46,365 nucleotides of DNA from an uncultured Thermodesulfobacteriota bacterium (GCA_964439795.1 CAYTRL010000001.1:1-46365), one strand, 5' to 3'; shown: positions 15,778 through 23,528, counted from the first letter of the stretch. Notes: generated by a model from the letters alone, not told the origin. Translations and numbers: made by a program.

Positions 15778-16626
15778 TCAGTGGTGCCCGCCCCCCTTGA
15801 AGATGAAGCCCACCAGCAGGCCCGCGCCCAAGGCGATGATCACCGCGCAGAGCCCATAGATGATCGGATGTTCCTTGGAGGCGTTGGCCACGAACTTGAC
15901 CAGGCCCACCTTCTCGATCTGGATGGTGTCCCGTGAGTGCCCCACCAGCTTCTTGTCCTTGATCAGGTAGGAATCCACGTTGTACGTGCCCGGCTTGGCC
16001 GCCGGGGGAAACCGGAAGGTGTGCTGGAAGCTCTTGTCATCCTTGAAGCCCAGCGTACCCGATTCGTCTATGCTGTACAGCTCTTCTTCTTCCTTCAACT
16101 GCACCAGCCCCTTGAACACGGTGTCCAGGTCGTCCGGCTCCTGGGTCCCCTTCAGGATGTGCACCTGCAGCTGATCCTTGATCACCGCGAACCCCAGGCC
16201 CAACTCCTGGGCCAGCTCCGGGGACAGGATCTTGCTCAGCGTCCCGGAGGCGCGGATCTTGTAAATAGAGGGGACGTTCTCCACCTCGTACTGGCGGGTG
16301 TTCATCCAGAAGGGACCGAACCGCCCCTTGACGTTGATCTTGACCGTTTCCGCGGGCGAGGTGAGCTTCACGATGATGGAATCCGCCTGGATGCCGTCCG
16401 TGCTGCCGAAGAAGTCGATCTGCTGGCCGTTGTAAGTGATGCCGGTTTCGATTACCGACTGGGTGGAATTCGTGGTGAATTCCCCGGTATCCTTGACGAT
16501 TTCCGGGGTTTGCTCCGCTGCCGGGGCGTGATCCGCCGCATCGGACTCCGCCAGAGCAGTCGAGCCGGTCCCGCCCAGCGCTGTCACCAACAGTACAGTG
16601 AACAGGATAATTATTGGCTGTTTCAT
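15778..16626 (-). CDS. TIGR02186-like (Alph_Pro_TM) exported protein with a C-terminal membrane anchor
   Basis: N-terminal signal peptide, C-terminal TM helix IIYGLCAVIIALGAGLLVGFIF, central GRFGPFWMNTRQYEV segment. Its start overlaps the stop of the upstream TauE gene by 1 nt (TGATG). Confidence 0.6.
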   Translation of the reverse strand: MKQPIIILFTVLLVTALGGTGSTALAESDAADHAPAAEQTPEIVKDTGEFTTNSTQSVIETGITYNGQQIDFFGSTDGIQADSIIVKLTSPAETVKINVKGRFGPFWMNTRQYEVENVPSIYKIRASGTLSKILSPELAQELGLGFAVIKDQLQVHILKGTQEPDDLDTVFKGLVQLKEEEELYSIDESGTLGFKDDKSFQHTFRFPPAAKPGTYNVDSYLIKDKKLVGHSRDTIQIEKVGLVKFVANASKEHPIIYGLCAVIIALGAGLLVGFIFKGGGHH

Positions 16627-17570
16627 CAGTGTCCTCCGCTTGCGCCTTTGGCGAGACTCACCAGGTTGTCGGGTGTAAGAACCAGATCCAACAGGAGTTT
16701 GAACATCATGGCCAGCACGATCACGCTGAGCAGGATGCGGATCTGTTCGCCCCGCAGGTACTTGGTGGCCCGTACACCTACCTGGGCACCCAGGACCGAA
16801 CCCATCAGCAGGGTGAGAGCGAGCCCGAGGTCCACGGTGTGGTTGGTGATGGCTTGCTGGAGCGTAACGTTGGCGCTGGTGAAAACGATCTGGAACAGGT
16901 CCGTGCCGATGGCCGAGATGGTGGGCATGCCGATGATGTAGATCATGGCCGGCACCATGATGAACCCGCCTCCCACTCCCAGCATGGCGGCCAAGACCCC
17001 CACAGCGGCGCCGATGGCGAACGGGAAGATGGCCGAAGTGCGCAGGTGGGACTTGGGGAAGTCCATCTGCAGGGGGAGCTTGGCAAAGAACCGGGAGAAC
17101 CCGGGCTGCTTCATCTCCCCCGGGTCGTTGTCCACGGTTTCCGGCTCCGCCTGGCGCAGGGCGCGCAGGCTTTCCACGAACATGGCGCCGCCCACGGTGC
17201 CCAGCATCAGGACGTAAACCAGCTTCATGGTGAACTCGAAGTTCCCGATGGCGCGCAGGTACTTCACGAAGTGCACCCCGATGGTCCCGCCGGTGACCCC
17301 GCCCGCCAGGATGACGAGGCCCATCTTCATGTCCACGTTGCCCAGCCGCCAGTGGCCGAAGGCCGCGGAGGAGGAACTGGCCACGATCTGGTTGGAGTCG
17401 GAGGCAGCGGCCACGGCCGGGGGGATGCCGATCATCATCATCAGAGGGGTCAGCAGAAAGCCGCCCCCCACCCCGAACAGGCCGGAGAGGAACCCCACAA
17501 CGGCCCCGATGCCCACCACAAGAAAGATGTTGATGCTCATGTCCGCAATGGGGAGATAGATGTGCATCAT
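16626..17570 (-). CDS. TauE/SafE-family (sulfite exporter-like) membrane permease
   Basis: GAVVGFLSGLFGVGGGFLLTPLMM and the second-half repeat AAMLGVGGGFIMVPAMIY. AGGAGA RBS upstream. Confidence 0.85.
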   Translation of the reverse strand: MMHIYLPIADMSINIFLVVGIGAVVGFLSGLFGVGGGFLLTPLMMMIGIPPAVAAASDSNQIVASSSSAAFGHWRLGNVDMKMGLVILAGGVTGGTIGVHFVKYLRAIGNFEFTMKLVYVLMLGTVGGAMFVESLRALRQAEPETVDNDPGEMKQPGFSRFFAKLPLQMDFPKSHLRTSAIFPFAIGAAVGVLAAMLGVGGGFIMVPAMIYIIGMPTISAIGTDLFQIVFTSANVTLQQAITNHTVDLGLALTLLMGSVLGAQVGVRATKYLRGEQIRILLSVIVLAMMFKLLLDLVLTPDNLVSLAKGASGGH

Positions 17571-17976
17571 TCCGGATCGTCTCCTATGGTTTGAGGAACG
17601 GTTCGGTACGGGGAAGGAGCTTCCCCGCAGACGTCACGACAGGGGGATGGATAAAAACCGTAGAAAGGCAGAGGGAAAACAAAGCAAATAGGCCCGGAAG
17701 GGTACCAGGGCATCCTGCAATCGACATGGGATTGAATCCGCTTCATCTTTCACCGGGCGGGCGTCGTCGAGGTCCGGGAGCCTCGCGGCTCTATGGATTG
17801 ATGAATCCGATCTTGCTGAGTAAGATATGGGTCTGGAGAACGGTTCTTCCCATGCAGAAGCCCCATGGGGAAGAAGTGTATTTAAAAAACCTTTTTATTT
17901 TCACTCAAGTTAATCTCCAAGAATATATGAAACAATATAATTTGTCCAGGAGTGCCGGAGCCGGCACGATCGTGAA

Positions 17977-20649
17977 ATGTATCCGTTCTTCCAGCCGGGC
18001 CCTTGTGACGGGCCTCGGTCCGGGTCCGGGAGCCGCGCGGTGACGAACCTTTTCAAGTTTTTTCGGCGCAGCAGCAGGAAGCAGACGCCCGAGCTGAGCG
18101 AGCTGAAGAGGAGGCACTTCGCCTTCAAGGAGCTGCTGCACGCCAACAACGAGGCGCTTCACATCCTCGCGGACCTGGAAGGCAAGGCGGCGGATCCCAA
18201 GAACGTGACCACCAGCTACATGCGCTCGCAGGTGGTGGGGCTCACGGTGAACGTCATCAAGATCGTGAGGAACCTGGAAACCGTGGCGGGAAAGGAGTAC
18301 CCGACCCTCCACCATACCCTGCAGCGACGGGTCCGGGCCCTGGAGAGCAAGCTGACACAGACCCGAAGCGAGGAAGCGCGCGCCTTTACCCTCCCTCTCG
18401 CCAGGATTCGGCCGGACATGCGGAACGCGGTTGGGGAGAAGACGGCGAACCTGGCGGAGATGAGGCACACGCTCGGCCTTTCCGTCCCCAGAGGGTTTGT
18501 CCTGACCACCCGGGCGTATCAGCGGTTCTGTGAGCACAACCAGCTGGAAACCGGAATCAATACCCTCCGGATGGATTTCAACGTGCACGACCCGGAGTCC
18601 GTGAAGAGAACGAGCCGGCGGATTCAGGACCTGATCCTGGCCGGGACGTTCCCGCCGGACCTGTTGGAGGTGTTCCTCGCTTCGTACGAGGAACTCAAAC
18701 GTAGGTGCGGCCCGGATCTTCGGTTGGCGGTCCGCAGCAGCGCCATCGGCGAGGACAGCGTGCAGTCGTCGTTCGCGGGTCTGTACGAGAGCTACCTCAA
18801 CGTAACCGGAGAGGGGCTGCTCAACGCGTACAAGCAGGTGCTGGCCAGCAAGTACACCACCCGGGCCCTCTACTACAAGGCGAACAAGGGCCTGGTGGAT
18901 GACGATATCCCCATGTGCGTGTGCTGCATCCAGATGGTGGATGCGGTGGTCAGCGGGGTGATGTACACCCAGGATCCGTTCGACCGCGACAGGGTCCACA
19001 TCTCCGCGGGCTGGGGGCTGGGGCCCGGCATCGTCTCCGGTGAGATCAGTCCGGACATTTTTTCCCTGGACAAAAAGACCGGGCGGATCGTGGAAAAGAA
19101 GGTGTCCGATCAGCCGATGATGCTGGTGTCCGAATCCGGAAAGGGAACCTGCGAGGTACCCGTGCCCCGGCTGCACGCGGACGAAGCCTGCCTCACCGAC
19201 GAGGAGGTGGCGGGCCTCTTCCAGGTGGCCGGCGTGCTGGAAAAATACTATCAGGGGCCCCAGGACGTGGAGTTCAGCATCGATGAAGAGGGGAGGCTCT
19301 TTGTGCTGCAGACCCGGGCCCTGGACTGCAGCACGGTGGAACCGTCCCGGGCGCCCTCCGGGGAAGGGGAGGCCCCGGAAGCGGAGGTCCTTTTTTCCTG
19401 CCCGGAAGCCCAGGTGGCCTGTATGGGGGCCGGTGCCGGGGTGACCCATGTGGTCCGGGATCCTCGGGACATGGACAGGTTTCCCCCGGCCGGAGTGCTC
19501 GTGGTCCGCACCCTGATGCCGGACTGGATGGAACTGGTGGGACGGGTCAAGGCCATCATCGCGGAACTGGGCAGCCCCACGGGGCACATGGCTTCCATCG
19601 CCCGTGAGTTCAAGGTGCCCATGCTGGTGAACGTGAAGGACGCCACGGAGCGGGTGCCGGAGGGAGAGTGGGTGACCCTGGACGCTGCCGGCCGGGTGCT
19701 CTACCGGGGGCGGGTGGAACCCCTTTTGTGCAACGACAGTGAACTTTCCGAAATGATCCTCGAGAGCCCCGTGTACAAGACCCTGGAGGCGGTGCTCGCC
19801 AGCGTTTCCCCGCTGAACCTGACCAACCCCCGGGACCGCAACTTCCGCCCGGCCGGCTGCCGGACCCTGCACGACATCATGCGCTACTGCCACGAGGAGT
19901 CGATCAACGCCATGTTTTCCTTCAGCGACTCCCAGGCGTTCCACAGGGGAAAGGTCTTCCAGCTCTCCATCCCCGTGCCGTTGCGCATCTTCGTGGTGGA
20001 CCTGGGGAGAGGGCTGAAAAGCGTGGATCCGGGTCAGAGGGAAATCCCGGCGGAGTACGTGGAGTCGGTGCCGCTCCGGGCGCTCATCGACGGGATGACC
20101 ACCCCCGGGGTCCGGTGGGCCGGACACGTCCCCCTGGGCTTCAAGAGCCTGGTGTCCGTGTTCGCCAACACCCTCTACGACCCCATGAAGCATGAGCGGG
20201 AGCTGGGGGCCCGGAGCTATGCCATGGTTTCCAGGAAATACGTGAACTTCAGTTCCCGCCTGGGATATCACTTTTCCACCCTGGACGCCTTCTGCGGTGA
20301 AGAGCCGAACTCCAATTACATCTCGTTCCGGTTCAAGGGCGGTGCGGCCTCCGTGGACAAGCGTACGCGCCGGGCCGAGTTCATCGCACGGATCCTGGTG
20401 GCCAACGGGTTCTGGATGGACCAGAAAGAGGACCTGGTGAACGCACACTTCAAGAATTTTCCCATGAAAGCCACCCTGGACCGCCTGGTCATGCTGGGAA
20501 GGCTCATGGGGTGCGCCCGGCAGCTGGACGTGGCCATGGAGTCGCCCGAGCATGTCTCGTACTTTGTGGACCTTTTTCTCAATGGAACGTACAATTTCTT
20601 TTCCATTTCCAGCAGTACCGAAAAGCAGGACGGGGATCCCGATGGATGA
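17977..20649 (+). CDS. PEP/pyruvate-binding (PPDK_N ATP-grasp) plus PEP-utilizer mobile His-domain protein with an uncharacterised ~300-aa C-terminus
   Basis: NAVGEKTANLAEM...PRGFVLTT, LAVRSSAIGEDS, VMYTQDP, QDVEFSIDEEGRLFVLQTRAL. Swivel domain: VLVVRTLMPDWMELVGRVKAIIAELGSPTGHMASIAREFKVPMLV. An alternative GTG start at 18040 has a better RBS (GGGAG 7 nt upstream). Confidence 0.8.
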   Translation: MYPFFQPGPCDGPRSGSGSRAVTNLFKFFRRSSRKQTPELSELKRRHFAFKELLHANNEALHILADLEGKAADPKNVTTSYMRSQVVGLTVNVIKIVRNLETVAGKEYPTLHHTLQRRVRALESKLTQTRSEEARAFTLPLARIRPDMRNAVGEKTANLAEMRHTLGLSVPRGFVLTTRAYQRFCEHNQLETGINTLRMDFNVHDPESVKRTSRRIQDLILAGTFPPDLLEVFLASYEELKRRCGPDLRLAVRSSAIGEDSVQSSFAGLYESYLNVTGEGLLNAYKQVLASKYTTRALYYKANKGLVDDDIPMCVCCIQMVDAVVSGVMYTQDPFDRDRVHISAGWGLGPGIVSGEISPDIFSLDKKTGRIVEKKVSDQPMMLVSESGKGTCEVPVPRLHADEACLTDEEVAGLFQVAGVLEKYYQGPQDVEFSIDEEGRLFVLQTRALDCSTVEPSRAPSGEGEAPEAEVLFSCPEAQVACMGAGAGVTHVVRDPRDMDRFPPAGVLVVRTLMPDWMELVGRVKAIIAELGSPTGHMASIAREFKVPMLVNVKDATERVPEGEWVTLDAAGRVLYRGRVEPLLCNDSELSEMILESPVYKTLEAVLASVSPLNLTNPRDRNFRPAGCRTLHDIMRYCHEESINAMFSFSDSQAFHRGKVFQLSIPVPLRIFVVDLGRGLKSVDPGQREIPAEYVESVPLRALIDGMTTPGVRWAGHVPLGFKSLVSVFANTLYDPMKHERELGARSYAMVSRKYVNFSSRLGYHFSTLDAFCGEEPNSNYISFRFKGGAASVDKRTRRAEFIARILVANGFWMDQKEDLVNAHFKNFPMKATLDRLVMLGRLMGCARQLDVAMESPEHVSYFVDLFLNGTYNFFSISSSTEKQDGDPDG

Positions 20650-21037
20650 CATGGGCCGGGTGCTTCTCGTGGACGATGATGAACCTTTCCGGACGGCCCT
20701 TTCCGCCAGGTTGAAGGCCATGGGGTTCCCCCTGGAATCGGTTGATCGGGGCGAGGAAGCCCTGGACGTCCTGCGCCGCGAGACGTTCTGCGTGGTCATC
20801 CTGGATCTGCTCATGCCCGGGATGGGCGGCATGGAAACCCTGCGGCAGATCAAGATCCAGCACCCCGCCGTGGAGGTCATCCTGCTCACCGGGGCGGGCT
20901 CCGTGGAGACCGCCCTGGAAGGGATGAACAAAGGTGCGTTCGATTACCTGATGAAACCCTGCGATCCGGAGCATCTGCGGGGCAGGATCCAGAGGGCCTG
21001 GGAAAAGCGGGAAGTAGAACGGATGGCGGAAGAGTGA
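20642..21037 (+). CDS. Stand-alone response-regulator receiver (CheY-like)
   Basis: VLLVDDDEPFR...VVILDLLMPGMGG...VILLTG...AFDYLMKP. ATG 20642 overlaps the upstream stop (ATGGATGA). Confidence 0.85.
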   Translation: MDDMGRVLLVDDDEPFRTALSARLKAMGFPLESVDRGEEALDVLRRETFCVVILDLLMPGMGGMETLRQIKIQHPAVEVILLTGAGSVETALEGMNKGAFDYLMKPCDPEHLRGRIQRAWEKREVERMAEE

Positions 21038-21092: not shown

Positions 21093-23528
21093 ATGAAACG
21101 CAAAGCCCTGACGATTGTCTGGATGGCTCTGTTTTTTCTGGGCGGATGCATCATGGGAAAACCCTCGACTCTCTATCAGGGGGAGGTCCCGGGGCAGCCG
21201 GTGACCCAGGCGGTGACGGTGGTCCGCGATGCGCAGGGGGTCCCGCACATCTTCGCGGAGGACCCGGGGGACCTCTTCTTTGCCCTGGGGTACACCATGG
21301 CGCAGGACCGGCTGTTCCAGATGGATATGTACCGGCACGTGGCCAGGGGACGGCTCTGTGAGTGGTTCGGAAACCTCCCCCTGGGCAAGGGGATGCGACT
21401 GGTGCAGATGGACATGCTCATGAAGTGCTTCGAACTGGGGGAGCGGGCCCAGGGGGCTCTGCCGGGCATGCCCCCGGACAGCCGCCGTCTGTTGGATCGG
21501 TTCACGGAGGGCATCAACCAGTTTGTCTCGGAGAGCCGGGACAACCGGCCCGTGGAGTACAGGCTCCTGTGCATCGAGCCGGGGCCATGGACCGCTGCGG
21601 ACGTCATGAGCATCCCCGAACTGTTCGGCGTGGGCCTGAGCCTGATCGGTATCGGTTCGGAGATTCTGCACGAGGCCATGGAACAGACGATGGGACCCCG
21701 GCTGACCCGGGATTTCTACCGCAGGTACACAGGCCTTCCCCTGCCCGATCCGGAGGGTCCGGTCCCGGGCGGGACGGCGGCGGAGGCCCGGTGGTTCGGC
21801 AACCTGTTGCTGGCAGGGAACGTCCTGCGCCTGGGTGTTCCCCAGGGAAGCAACAACTGGGCGGTCTCCGGGAGCCGTTCCGAGAACGGTAAACCCCTGC
21901 TGGGCAACGATCCACACGTGCCCCTGGGGCCGGCGCCCAGCTTCTGGTACCACGCCCACATTCAGGGGGGCGGTTTCTCGGTGGAGGGGCTCCTGTACCC
22001 GGGGCATCCCACCTTCGGGGCCGCCTGGAACGGGAACGTGGCCTGGGGCGTGACCAACATGATGGCGGACCAGACCGACCTGTTTCGAGAACGGCTGGAC
22101 CCCGGGGACCCGGATCGTTACGAGACCCCGGACGGGTGGAAACGTTTCGAGACGCGACCGGTGAAGTGCACGGTCCGCCTGGGCCGGGACCGGACCTTTG
22201 TCCTGAAAAAAGGGACCCACGGGTTTCTCGTTCCCCGGGAGGCCCTGGATAGCCGTTACGCGAGGAAGTACCCCTGGCTGCTCGATCCTGTCTCTCTCCA
22301 GTACGTGGCCACGGACCCGGGAGCCTATTTTCACGGGCAGGTTCTGCTCATGAAGGCCCGCGACAGCGCGCAGGTGAAGGCGGCCCTGGAGCAGATCGGC
22401 CGGGGGCCCACCGCCTATAATTACGTGTGGGCGTGCCGGGACGGGGACATCGGGTACCATGCGGCAGGCATTATTCCGATCCGCGGGGCCGGGCAGGGTT
22501 TCTCGGTGAAGGACGGCTGGAAGCCCGGAGTGGGCTGGCGCGGGACCGTCCCGTTCCAGAAACTGCCTGCCCGGGAAAATCCACCGGACGGTATCCTCGC
22601 CACGGCCAACGAGAAGATCGCTCCCCCGGACTACCCCTGGTACATCGCGGTGGAGTATGCGGCACCGTACCGGGTCGACCGGATCCGGCAGCTTCTGGGG
22701 AAGAAGGAACTGTGTTCCGCCGAGGGGTTCCAGAAGATCCAGGCCGACGTTTACAACCTGGCGGCCGCCCCGTACCTGCGCATCTTGAAGGAGGTGTATT
22801 CCGGGTCGGGGGAGCGGGACGCGTTGACCGACCCGGAACGACGGGCCCTGGACAGCCTGCTGTCCTGGGACCGGCAAACCGCCGCGGACTCCAGGGGGGC
22901 GGCCCTCTTCGAGGTGTTCCTCCAGCACCTGCTGGAGGAAACCTTTGCCGATGAGATGGGCAAGGAGCTGGCCGGCCCGGCCCTGGCGACCAACTTCATG
23001 GCCGCCAAGGTGATGAAAAGCCTCCTGAAAGACCCGGACAACCCCTGGTTCGACCGTCAGGGCACCGACGGGGTGGAGGGCCGCGACCGGATCTTCCGGG
23101 AGTCGTTCCGGAAGACGGTGAAGGTGTGCCGGAAAGAGATGGGCAAAAACCAGGAGGACTGGTCCTGGGGAAAGATACATACCCTGAAGATGGGACACCC
23201 GTTCGGTCTCATGCCCCTCACGAGCCGTTCCTTCCGGATCGGGACCTATCCCTACCCGGGGGACAACGACACGGTCAACGGCGGGTACTTCATGTTCGAC
23301 GAGGAGCGGTATCCCGTGGTGGCCGGGGCCGCCTCCCGGTTCGTGGTGGACCTGGCCCGCCCGTCGGGCGCGTGGTTCAACTGCTCCACCGGTATGGCGG
23401 GGGAGCCCTCCTCACCGTACTTCAAAAACCTCACCGCGGGCTGGATTCATGATCAGTATTTCTGGACACCGCTGGCCCCGCGGCCGGAGGAGATCCCTTC
23501 CGGGAAGAGCCTCATGCTGCAGCCCTGA
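21093..23528 (+). CDS. Penicillin/AHL acylase family (Ntn hydrolase, S45) lipoprotein
   Basis: Lipobox FLGGC. VRDAQGVPHIFAE, FFALGYTMAQDRLFQMD, and the nucleophile region GSNNWAVSGSRSENGKPLLGNDPH. Confidence 0.85.
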   Translation: MKRKALTIVWMALFFLGGCIMGKPSTLYQGEVPGQPVTQAVTVVRDAQGVPHIFAEDPGDLFFALGYTMAQDRLFQMDMYRHVARGRLCEWFGNLPLGKGMRLVQMDMLMKCFELGERAQGALPGMPPDSRRLLDRFTEGINQFVSESRDNRPVEYRLLCIEPGPWTAADVMSIPELFGVGLSLIGIGSEILHEAMEQTMGPRLTRDFYRRYTGLPLPDPEGPVPGGTAAEARWFGNLLLAGNVLRLGVPQGSNNWAVSGSRSENGKPLLGNDPHVPLGPAPSFWYHAHIQGGGFSVEGLLYPGHPTFGAAWNGNVAWGVTNMMADQTDLFRERLDPGDPDRYETPDGWKRFETRPVKCTVRLGRDRTFVLKKGTHGFLVPREALDSRYARKYPWLLDPVSLQYVATDPGAYFHGQVLLMKARDSAQVKAALEQIGRGPTAYNYVWACRDGDIGYHAAGIIPIRGAGQGFSVKDGWKPGVGWRGTVPFQKLPARENPPDGILATANEKIAPPDYPWYIAVEYAAPYRVDRIRQLLGKKELCSAEGFQKIQADVYNLAAAPYLRILKEVYSGSGERDALTDPERRALDSLLSWDRQTAADSRGAALFEVFLQHLLEETFADEMGKELAGPALATNFMAAKVMKSLLKDPDNPWFDRQGTDGVEGRDRIFRESFRKTVKVCRKEMGKNQEDWSWGKIHTLKMGHPFGLMPLTSRSFRIGTYPYPGDNDTVNGGYFMFDEERYPVVAGAASRFVVDLARPSGAWFNCSTGMAGEPSSPYFKNLTAGWIHDQYFWTPLAPRPEEIPSGKSLMLQP

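Follow-up and report, generated by a model that had tools for sequence, protein, structure and literature searches.

A dikinase-like protein with a new C-terminal domain, its single-domain receiver and a neighbouring TauE/TSUP permease pair in a Thermodesulfobacteriota genome

Known dikinase-type systems and the PPS-X protein

In the phosphoenolpyruvate (PEP) synthase PpsA and in PPDK (2OLS, 8A8E, 9DAE, 1KBL) an ATP-grasp nucleotide-binding domain is followed by a swivel phospho-histidine domain and by a C-terminal PEP/pyruvate-binding TIM barrel. The same engine, with the acceptor domain swapped for a new substrate, is found in rifampicin phosphotransferase (RPH) (5HV1, 5FBS), HpeHI (9GOJ; PMC12167813), phenylphosphate synthase and PigC/RedH. 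Here we describe another protein of this type, encoded in a stretch of 46,365 nucleotides from an uncultured Thermodesulfobacteriota bacterium (GCA_964439795.1 CAYTRL010000001.1:1-46365), the whole of which is called here the window. We have labelled the family of this dikinase-like protein PPS-X. Its gene is followed by that of a lone receiver and lies divergently from the genes of a TauE/SafE (TSUP) permease and its TIGR02186/Alph_Pro_TM partner. The best explanation for the PPS-X/receiver pair is that it is one copy, reduced and split, of a conserved module that comprises a TauE/TSUP permease with its TIGR02186 partner and PPS-X with an output-less receiver. Concerning its function, we lean, with slightly better than even confidence, towards a two-component-controlled dikinase-type enzyme that serves the neighbouring permease and whose acceptor lies in the permease system.

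The closest described locus is a cluster that confers nitrate sensitivity on Desulfovibrio vulgaris (DVU0251-DVU0245) and D. alaskensis (Dde_0597-Dde_0605) (Korte et al., 2014; PMC4001038). It encodes a TauE permease (DVU0251), a conserved hypothetical protein (DVU0250), a PtxB-like protein (DVU0249), a kinase that is a pseudogene in D. vulgaris (DVU0248), a 120-aa receiver (DVU0247), a protein of 745 aa whose only annotations are PPDK_N, mobile-domain and ATP-grasp signatures (DVU0246), and a phosphatase (DVU0245) (PMC4001038). Insertions in the TauE, the receiver and the PPDK-like genes all led to nitrate resistance in both D. vulgaris and D. alaskensis, and the G20 mutants grew slightly more poorly on thiosulfate, the authors proposing a leaky thiosulfate transporter (PMC4001038). 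Since the loss of each of them has the same effect, the TauE, receiver and dikinase-like genes of the cluster act together.

The open reading frame (ORF) of PPS-X in the window spans 17977..20649 on the plus strand and encodes 890 aa if it is read from the ATG at 17977. In the public database, the identical protein is called as 869 aa, from a GTG (18040) that has a GGGAG sequence 8 nt upstream. The alignment of homologues favours this GTG, from which they align, and the first 21 residues of the longer reading are not conserved; thus, these residues are probably untranslated.

The initial annotation had recognized in this protein a PPDK_N-type domain and a mobile phospho-histidine domain, and the Pfam searches support both assignments (Table 1), the second domain carrying the motif GSPTGHMASIAREFKVPMLV. 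The swivel histidine corresponds to codon 537 of the 890-aa frame (CAC at 19585-19587; H516 in the 869-aa numbering) and is invariant in 30/30 diverse homologues (alignment A1), in which the GxK loop and the RSS, ED, FAG, QD.E and Q.R motifs are also invariant. These motifs and the swivel histidine are the counterparts of K22, R92, E323, Q335, R337 and H455 of the C. symbiosum PPDK. Given that all the nucleotide-binding residues of the PpsA/PPDK ATP-grasp domain and the swivel histidine are kept, the expected reaction of PPS-X is an ATP-dependent autophosphorylation in which the beta-phosphate goes to His537 and AMP and Pi are released, as in dikinases.

The domain order of PPS-X is that of PpsA and differs, as had been pointed out, from that of RPH, in which the substrate domain lies between the ATP-grasp domain and a C-terminal swivel, whereas the swivel of PPS-X is located mid-protein (residues 503-571). 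HpeHI and phenylphosphate synthase, unlike PPS-X, are split into subunits. The AlphaFold2 (AF2) model of the whole PPS-X, with a predicted local distance difference test (pLDDT) score of 81, matched PpsA (2ols), RPH (5hv6) and HpeI (9goj) in Foldseek through the ATP-grasp and swivel parts only. Compared with PpsA and PPDK, PPS-X has an extra N-terminal helical domain with the consensus LRxKYxxFRxLLxxNNExLExIxxLE, whose L33, N36 and L40 are invariant in A1. The Pfam search gave no match for residues 1-140, and no conserved His was found in the N-terminal helical domain in A1.

A second difference from PpsA and PPDK is a C-terminal domain (CTD) that takes the place of the TIM barrel. The initial annotation had held that the C-terminal ~300 residues do not resemble this barrel, and profile and structure searches of the region in fact gave no family or fold. 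The Pfam search with residues 590-890 was empty, and no Pfam family, PF02896 included, matched any of 74 CTD family members. The CTD profile (A2) found nothing below E 0.015 among the PDB sequences. For the last 304 residues, an AF2 model based on 74 sequences (pLDDT 81.4; predicted template-modelling (TM) score, pTM, 0.71), has a mixed fold with helices packed on antiparallel sheets and no (beta/alpha)8 barrel, and Foldseek found for it nothing in the PDB below E 0.03, with TM-scores <= 0.21. The domain contains the motifs C.T.HD..R..HE, NF(S/G)SRLGYHF, NYI.FRFKGGAA..RR.RR.F and GRLM..(A/S)RQLD (A1, A2). According to the numbering within the domain, D47, H179, N194, G203, R213, D233 and D265 are invariant, and C42, H46, R50, H53, R175, Y178, R209, R210 and R262 are near-invariant. 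The CTD is thus strongly conserved, and these residues look like a catalytic or anion-binding site. At the sequence level, these comparisons show that the PEP/pyruvate barrel has been replaced by a new Arg/His/Asp-rich domain that is conserved in all paralogues.

The relatives of PPS-X are labelled in their sources as 'pyruvate, water dikinase', and the best NCBIfam match is the PpsA model, as would be expected of an ordinary PEP synthase whose barrel had become too divergent to be recognized. This explanation is extremely improbable. The PpsA equivalog model NF005057 reached 322 bits, below its cut-off of 598, and aligned only through its positions 5-467 of 798, the PDB sequence matches to PpsA stop near residue 590 of PPS-X, the confident CTD model has neither a barrel nor a PDB neighbour, and the PEP-utilizer family PF02896 was matched by 0/74 members. 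Moreover, PPS-X differs from PpsA and PPDK in occurring as several paralogues per genome, in some cases six or more, which are embedded in loci for signalling and transport. With Pfam, NCBIfam, PDB sequence, AF2 and Foldseek results all against it, the divergent barrel was rejected. The substrate domains of the RPH group are also unrelated to the CTD, since the RPH-group model NF041857 gave 206 bits against a cut-off of 999 and Foldseek gave no match of the CTD to any of them. PPS-X is neither a PEP synthase nor a member of any characterised dikinase family. Being routinely mis-annotated as PEP synthase, it distorts the metabolism reconstructed for sulfate reducers and sulfur disproportionators, and its elucidation would define a new type of acceptor domain for the chemistry of the swivel His.

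A search limited to residues 580-890 retrieved 576 proteins, and the best 120 of them carry PF01326 and PF00391 only, most having ~820-893 aa and a few shorter ones being fragments. With the CTD profile, 1.84 billion representatives yielded 1,624 clusters at 50% identity, of which 1,260 reached E <= 1e-10, and in full-length proteins the CTD is always at the extreme C-terminus. In the phylum of the window, the CTD is present in 151 of the 401 sampled genomes (38%) and in 86/255 genera, often as 2-6 paralogues, with some genomes reaching six copies or more; the count for a second phylum was 24/401 genomes. The 80 loci that were fetched from species-representative genomes belong to Desulfobacterota-type bacteria, Acidobacteriota, Phycisphaerae, Kryptoniota, Ignavibacteria and Bacteroidota metagenome-assembled genomes (MAGs), and 44 of these loci hold two or three full-length PPS-X paralogues, ~32-36% identical and mostly side by side.

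There are also part-length relatives. Recurrent ~400-aa proteins join the N-terminal helical domain directly to the CTD and lack the ATP-grasp and the swivel domains (L042 4490-5689, minus strand, and at least 8 of the best 150 representatives, i.e., P0161, P0173, P0176, P0179, P0180, P0192, P0194 and P0198). In Acidobacteriota, two proteins of ~520 aa encoded upstream of a third PPS-X paralogue (L003 11623-13176 and L033 9040-10656, both on the minus strand) contain the N-terminal domain, a swivel-like segment whose catalytic His is replaced by Pro or Ala, and a degenerate CTD; these His-less proteins are probably pseudoenzyme partners. The existence of ~400-aa proteins without the engine and the loss of the swivel His in some copies suggest that the unit formed by the N-terminal domain and the CTD has an independent role, for which binding is the simplest possibility. 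Some PPS-X proteins have an extra C-terminal extension of ~190 aa without Pfam match (L134 2116-5322; L135 2361-5543).

The N-terminal helical domain is also found standing alone in other proteins. A 407-aa protein of the window's genome (contig C173, L089 4829-6052, minus strand), encoded upstream of a receiver, shares with PPS-X only this domain (hhalign probability 92%, E 7e-7). Its remainder has no Pfam match, and a 429-aa equivalent is present in a genome of the same family (L137 675-1964).

The receiver and its sensor kinase

The overlap between the stop codon of PPS-X and the start of the 131-aa receiver, described in the initial annotation, is found in the junction ATGGATGA at 20642-20649, where the TGA of PPS-X (20647-20649) overlaps the receiver start, whose ATG is at 20642; a second in-frame ATG of the receiver is located at 20651. 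The receiver is canonical, with the acidic pocket DDD11-13, the phospho-accepting D55, T83 and K104, and it has no output domain.

To count the pairings we used 71 complete PPS-X copies flanked by 1.5 kb or more on either side. A single-domain receiver was encoded within 450 bp on the same strand in 23 of them, and a REC domain within 3 kb in 40. The remaining 48/71 copies have no adjacent receiver, and thus, the receiver cannot be the general phospho-acceptor of the family. In a tree from a quick IQ-TREE search, in which the 23 adjacent receivers were combined with 110 REC domains from ~100 REC-bearing ORFs of the window's genome, the receiver of the window falls in a clade (Shimodaira-Hasegawa-like approximate likelihood ratio test, SH-aLRT, 93) with ten PPS-X-adjacent receivers, from the closest relative of the locus (L001), one Phycisphaerae MAG, one Syntrophobacteraceae MAG and seven Acidobacteriota MAGs. 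This clade contains no other receiver of the window's own genome, and the receivers that neighbour its two other PPS-X paralogues belong to another two clades of PPS-X-adjacent receivers. On the whole tree, the label 'adjacent' requires 7 changes, compared with 21.6 in shuffles (0/500 as low). The clade and the low number of changes show that the pairing is old, specific and conserved. The conservation of the gene pair across genomes, proposed at the outset as a check, is therefore real and extends across phyla, and it is lineage-specific. The comparison of the PPS-X tree with the receiver clades gave only partial co-phylogeny, tandem copies being lost in merging, and it was not used as evidence.

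The initial annotation had offered two interpretations of the pair, a non-canonical His-to-Asp phosphotransfer and a regulated dikinase acting on an unknown substrate. According to the first one, PPS-X would replace a histidine kinase, and its swivel His~P would pass directly to Asp55 of the receiver for onward signalling. The overlapping stop and start codons, the co-inheritance of the receiver clade with PPS-X across phyla and the lack of an output domain in the receiver all speak for it, the transfer from phospho-His to Asp is ordinary chemistry, and in D. vulgaris, where the kinase of the nitrate cluster is a pseudogene, the mutants in the receiver and the PPDK-like genes have strong phenotypes (PMC4001038). 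Besides, the window is among the 4/23 receiver-adjacent copies that have no kinase within 3.5 kb.

Several observations make us regard this direct transfer as improbable. It explains neither the highly conserved CTD, which is kept in all copies and would be left without a role, nor the majority of copies, which lack an adjacent receiver. No HisKA, HPt or HATPase_c domain was detected by Pfam in PPS-X, and we know of no precedent for a transfer from a swivel domain to a REC domain. No fusion of REC to PPS-X was found among the long ORFs or the best 150 representatives, where the only extension of REC size belongs to a 1078-aa protein with a low-complexity tail. Four Rosetta-stone candidates were discarded, two of them (L134, L135) having the unassigned ~190-aa tail and no REC, and the other two (L136, L137) being gene-call run-ons. 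The comparative data favour the second interpretation, the regulated dikinase on an unknown substrate, for which the direct His-to-Asp transfer is not needed.

The distribution of kinases also argues against the direct transfer. It had been stated that no histidine kinase is adjacent to the pair; this is correct for the window, where none flanks it, but it does not hold as a general trait. A kinase is encoded within 3.5 kb of 33/71 complete PPS-X copies, and a canonical HisKA/HATPase kinase within this distance of 19 of the 23 receiver-adjacent ones. In the closest relative, L001 (60% identical overall and 71% in the CTD), a TauE gene on the minus strand is followed by PPS-X1, a receiver, PPS-X2, a Cache/PAS kinase and a second receiver (RR2).

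The window's genome, a MAG of 729 contigs that is 78.6% complete, keeps an orthologue of this kinase elsewhere. Three further pieces of PPS-X paralogues were found beyond the window, which makes at least three paralogues in all. Contig C605 (L083) ends in the N-terminal 565 residues of a PPS-X2 orthologue and contig C29 (L090) opens with its C-terminal 278 residues, followed by a kinase 59.5% identical to that of L001, a receiver 72% identical to RR2 and a DASS transporter. Contig C173 (L089) encodes a HAMP kinase with a sigma-54 regulator, a Usp protein, the 407-aa protein mentioned above, a single receiver, a PPS-X paralogue and a DASS/TrkA_C transporter. The genome has ~81 kinase-like ORFs and 102 REC-bearing ORFs. 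The orthologue on C29 implies that a canonical donor for the receiver of the window exists and that the operon is split in this genome; judging by this gene content, the absence of a kinase near the pair is a local peculiarity.

The permease pair and the candidate acceptors

The context considered in the initial annotation was incomplete, because both the divergent TauE/TIGR02186 pair and the link to the nitrate cluster of Desulfovibrio had been missed. When the flanking ORFs of 81 loci were clustered, a TauE/TSUP permease was the most frequent of the neighbours counted (41/81), followed by a single-domain receiver (34/81), a HAMP or Cache/PAS histidine kinase (33/81), a cytidylate-kinase-like plus BON protein (19/81) and the TIGR02186/Alph_Pro_TM partner of TauE (11/81), DASS/CitMHS transporters and sigma-54 regulators being further recurrent neighbours. 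At the genome level, the CTD is present in 79 of the 82 Alph_Pro_TM genomes of the window's phylum (odds ratio 90, p = 5e-37) and in 22/23 of those of the second phylum (p = 7e-33), where only two CTD genomes have no Alph_Pro_TM.

The module resembles the nitrate cluster. Both assemble in a single locus TauE with a small partner, a single-domain receiver, and a protein with PPDK_N and the mobile domain for which no barrel is annotated. The permease pair is divergent in the window and co-directional in the nitrate cluster, and DVU0246 has 745 aa compared with 869 aa in PPS-X. A second look-alike was found in a 2026 proteomic study of Dissulfuribacter thermophilus, in which the gene of a 'PEP synthase' (DITHS69_1988) adjoins those of a 'transmembrane protein co-occurring with TauE' (1989) and of TauE (1990), and the three proteins are all more abundant during thiosulfate disproportionation (PMC13490349). 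Judged by its gene context, DITHS69_1988, which was reported as a gluconeogenic 'PEP synthase', is probably a mis-annotated PPS-X member.

We propose the following sequence of events for the regulated dikinase that we favour. An ordinary sensor kinase, which in the window's genome would be the Cache/PAS kinase orthologue of C29, would phosphorylate the receiver, and the output-less receiver would bind PPS-X and switch it. PPS-X, at its CTD, would then phosphorylate an acceptor of the permease system, either the permease proteins or the oxyanion that they carry, and in this way the sensor input would set the transport of the anion or its metabolic trapping.

A number of points weigh against this proposal. 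We infer both the acceptor and the effect of the receiver, and this applies to the family as a whole. The genetics of the nitrate cluster fit equally well a PPS-X acting on the permease and a PPS-X acting on its cargo. Three components of the nitrate cluster, namely its kinase, PtxB-like periplasmic protein and dual-specificity phosphatase, are absent from the window, and the two loci are matched by domain annotation and synteny only, which makes DVU0246 a putative orthologue of PPS-X. Furthermore, the cluster kinase of D. vulgaris is a pseudogene, yet the receiver mutant is strongly affected, which fits a kinase-independent route to the receiver (PMC4001038).

The acceptor could also be purely metabolic. 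PPS-X would then be a small-molecule dikinase whose CTD binds an imported anion (e.g., a sulfur oxyanion) and which catalyses ATP + X + H2O -> AMP + X-P + Pi, the receiver only tuning the activity or being a bystander; the nitrate toxicity in Desulfovibrio could then be due to a futile, ATP-wasting cycle. The characterised relatives (PpsA, PPDK, RPH, HpeHI, phenylphosphate synthase and glucan water dikinase) all phosphorylate a substrate at a third domain, and the invariant Arg/His/Asp residues of the CTD with its KGGAA loop are as for an anion or phosphate site. Every paralogue adjoins an anion transporter, TauE in the window and a DASS/CitMHS transporter (one with TrkA_C), together with a receiver, in the two paralogues outside it. 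In addition, the 'PEP synthase' and the permease pair of D. thermophilus rise together in thiosulfate disproportionation (PMC13490349). However, the CTD is similarly conserved beside different transporter families, which argues against diversified substrates, the ~400-aa proteins and the copies without swivel His suggest a binding or regulatory role for the N-terminal domain and the CTD, and the neighbourhoods hold no conserved downstream enzyme for a phosphorylated anion. On balance, we consider a small-molecule dikinase possible and rather unlikely.

A more specific acceptor is suggested by the two permease proteins, which end in His after a Gly-rich tail (...GASGGH in TauE and ...KGGGHH in its partner). 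In the window's phylum, this terminal His was found in 30/30 sampled partners and in 29/29 adjacent TauE proteins, and in the second phylum 17 pairs have it in both proteins, 13 in neither and none is mixed (p = 8e-9, although some of these loci are near-duplicates). The fact that the terminal His is present or absent together in both proteins supports a joint function of the two termini. These residues could be phospho-acceptors for PPS-X or form a shared metal site, the co-variation fitting the metal site equally well.

If they were acceptors, PPS-X might be, by analogy, an ATP-driven counterpart of Enzyme I of the phosphotransferase system (PTS) for a secondary-type permease. The phosphorylated receiver would switch PPS-X on, the swivel His~P would be presented at the Arg-rich CTD, and the phosphate would go to the flexible, His-ended tails of TauE and its single-pass partner to gate or energise the transport of the anion. 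The analogy with Enzyme I (PtsI/PtsP) is functional, since its swivel phospho-His likewise passes the phosphate on to a protein by which membrane transport is controlled or driven. Unlike PPS-X, Enzyme I receives its phosphate from PEP at a TIM barrel, contains an HPr-binding subdomain and has no ATP-grasp domain, and its model TIGR01417 matched PPS-X weakly and in the swivel region only (E 4.5e-4). We find this reading quite doubtful.

The module that we have analysed is widespread and was flagged genetically as early as 2014, in the Desulfovibrio cluster. Loss of the transport system in which PPS-X is probably the missing link renders Desulfovibrio resistant to nitrate, a compound used against the souring of oil fields. 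Solving the function of PPS-X would also define a new output for output-less receivers and a regulation or energisation of TSUP permeases.

Feature coordinates and other neighbours

Table 1. Position of the PPS-X module and its domains in the window.
Feature	Position	Strand	Evidence or remark
TIGR02186/Alph_Pro_TM partner, 282 aa, end ...KGGGHH	15778..16626	-	PF09608 E 2.5e-53; start overlaps TauE stop
TauE/SafE (TSUP) permease, 314 aa, end ...GASGGH	16626..17570	-	PF01925 E 1.4e-48
Divergent intergenic region between permease and PPS-X operons, 470 bp	17571..18039	.	AT-rich stretch 17880-17960
PPS-X gene	18040..20649	+	869 aa from GTG; alternative ATG 17977 gives 890 aa
N-terminal helical domain, ~115 aa	18040..18400	+	Three long helices in AF2 model
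PPDK_N ATP-grasp nucleotide-binding domain	18424..19323	+	PF01326 E 7e-87, residues 150-449
Swivel phospho-histidine domain (PEP-utilizers mobile domain)	19483..19689	+	PF00391 E 3e-18, residues 503-571
CTD, ~290 aa, without known family or fold	19735..20646	+	No match by Pfam, NCBIfam, PDB sequence or Foldseek search
Single-domain response regulator, 131 aa	20642..21037	+	PF00072 E 7.5e-28; start overlaps PPS-X stop

The divergent region between the permease and the PPS-X operons (17571..18039) contains no match to the sigma-54 consensus (TGGCAC-N5-TTGC). Its sigma-70-like matches are weak, and the scans for sigma-70 promoters and terminators were not above shuffles.

The receiver is followed at 56 bp by a gene of the penicillin-amidase family (21093-23528, plus strand, 811 aa), and no terminator is predicted in the interval. 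This gene was considered as a part of the unit and rejected, since it is conserved in no related locus. The other neighbours in the window include a PadR operon.

A dual-specificity phosphatase was sought with a C-x5-R regular expression over 133 related loci and nothing credible was found, the matches in L075 and L054 not being phosphatase-like.

In L037 (1404-2237) and 18 other loci, mainly from Acidobacteriota, a PF13189 cytidylate-kinase-like plus BON protein precedes a second class of TauE, with the tail ...KLxxxHG, and tandem PPS-X genes. Finally, a HAMP kinase linked to PPS-X in Bacteroidota-type loci (L072 3986-5542) contains the periplasmic CxxCH-like motifs CQNCH and CYKSNCH, and, from these motifs, it may be a haem-c sensor.

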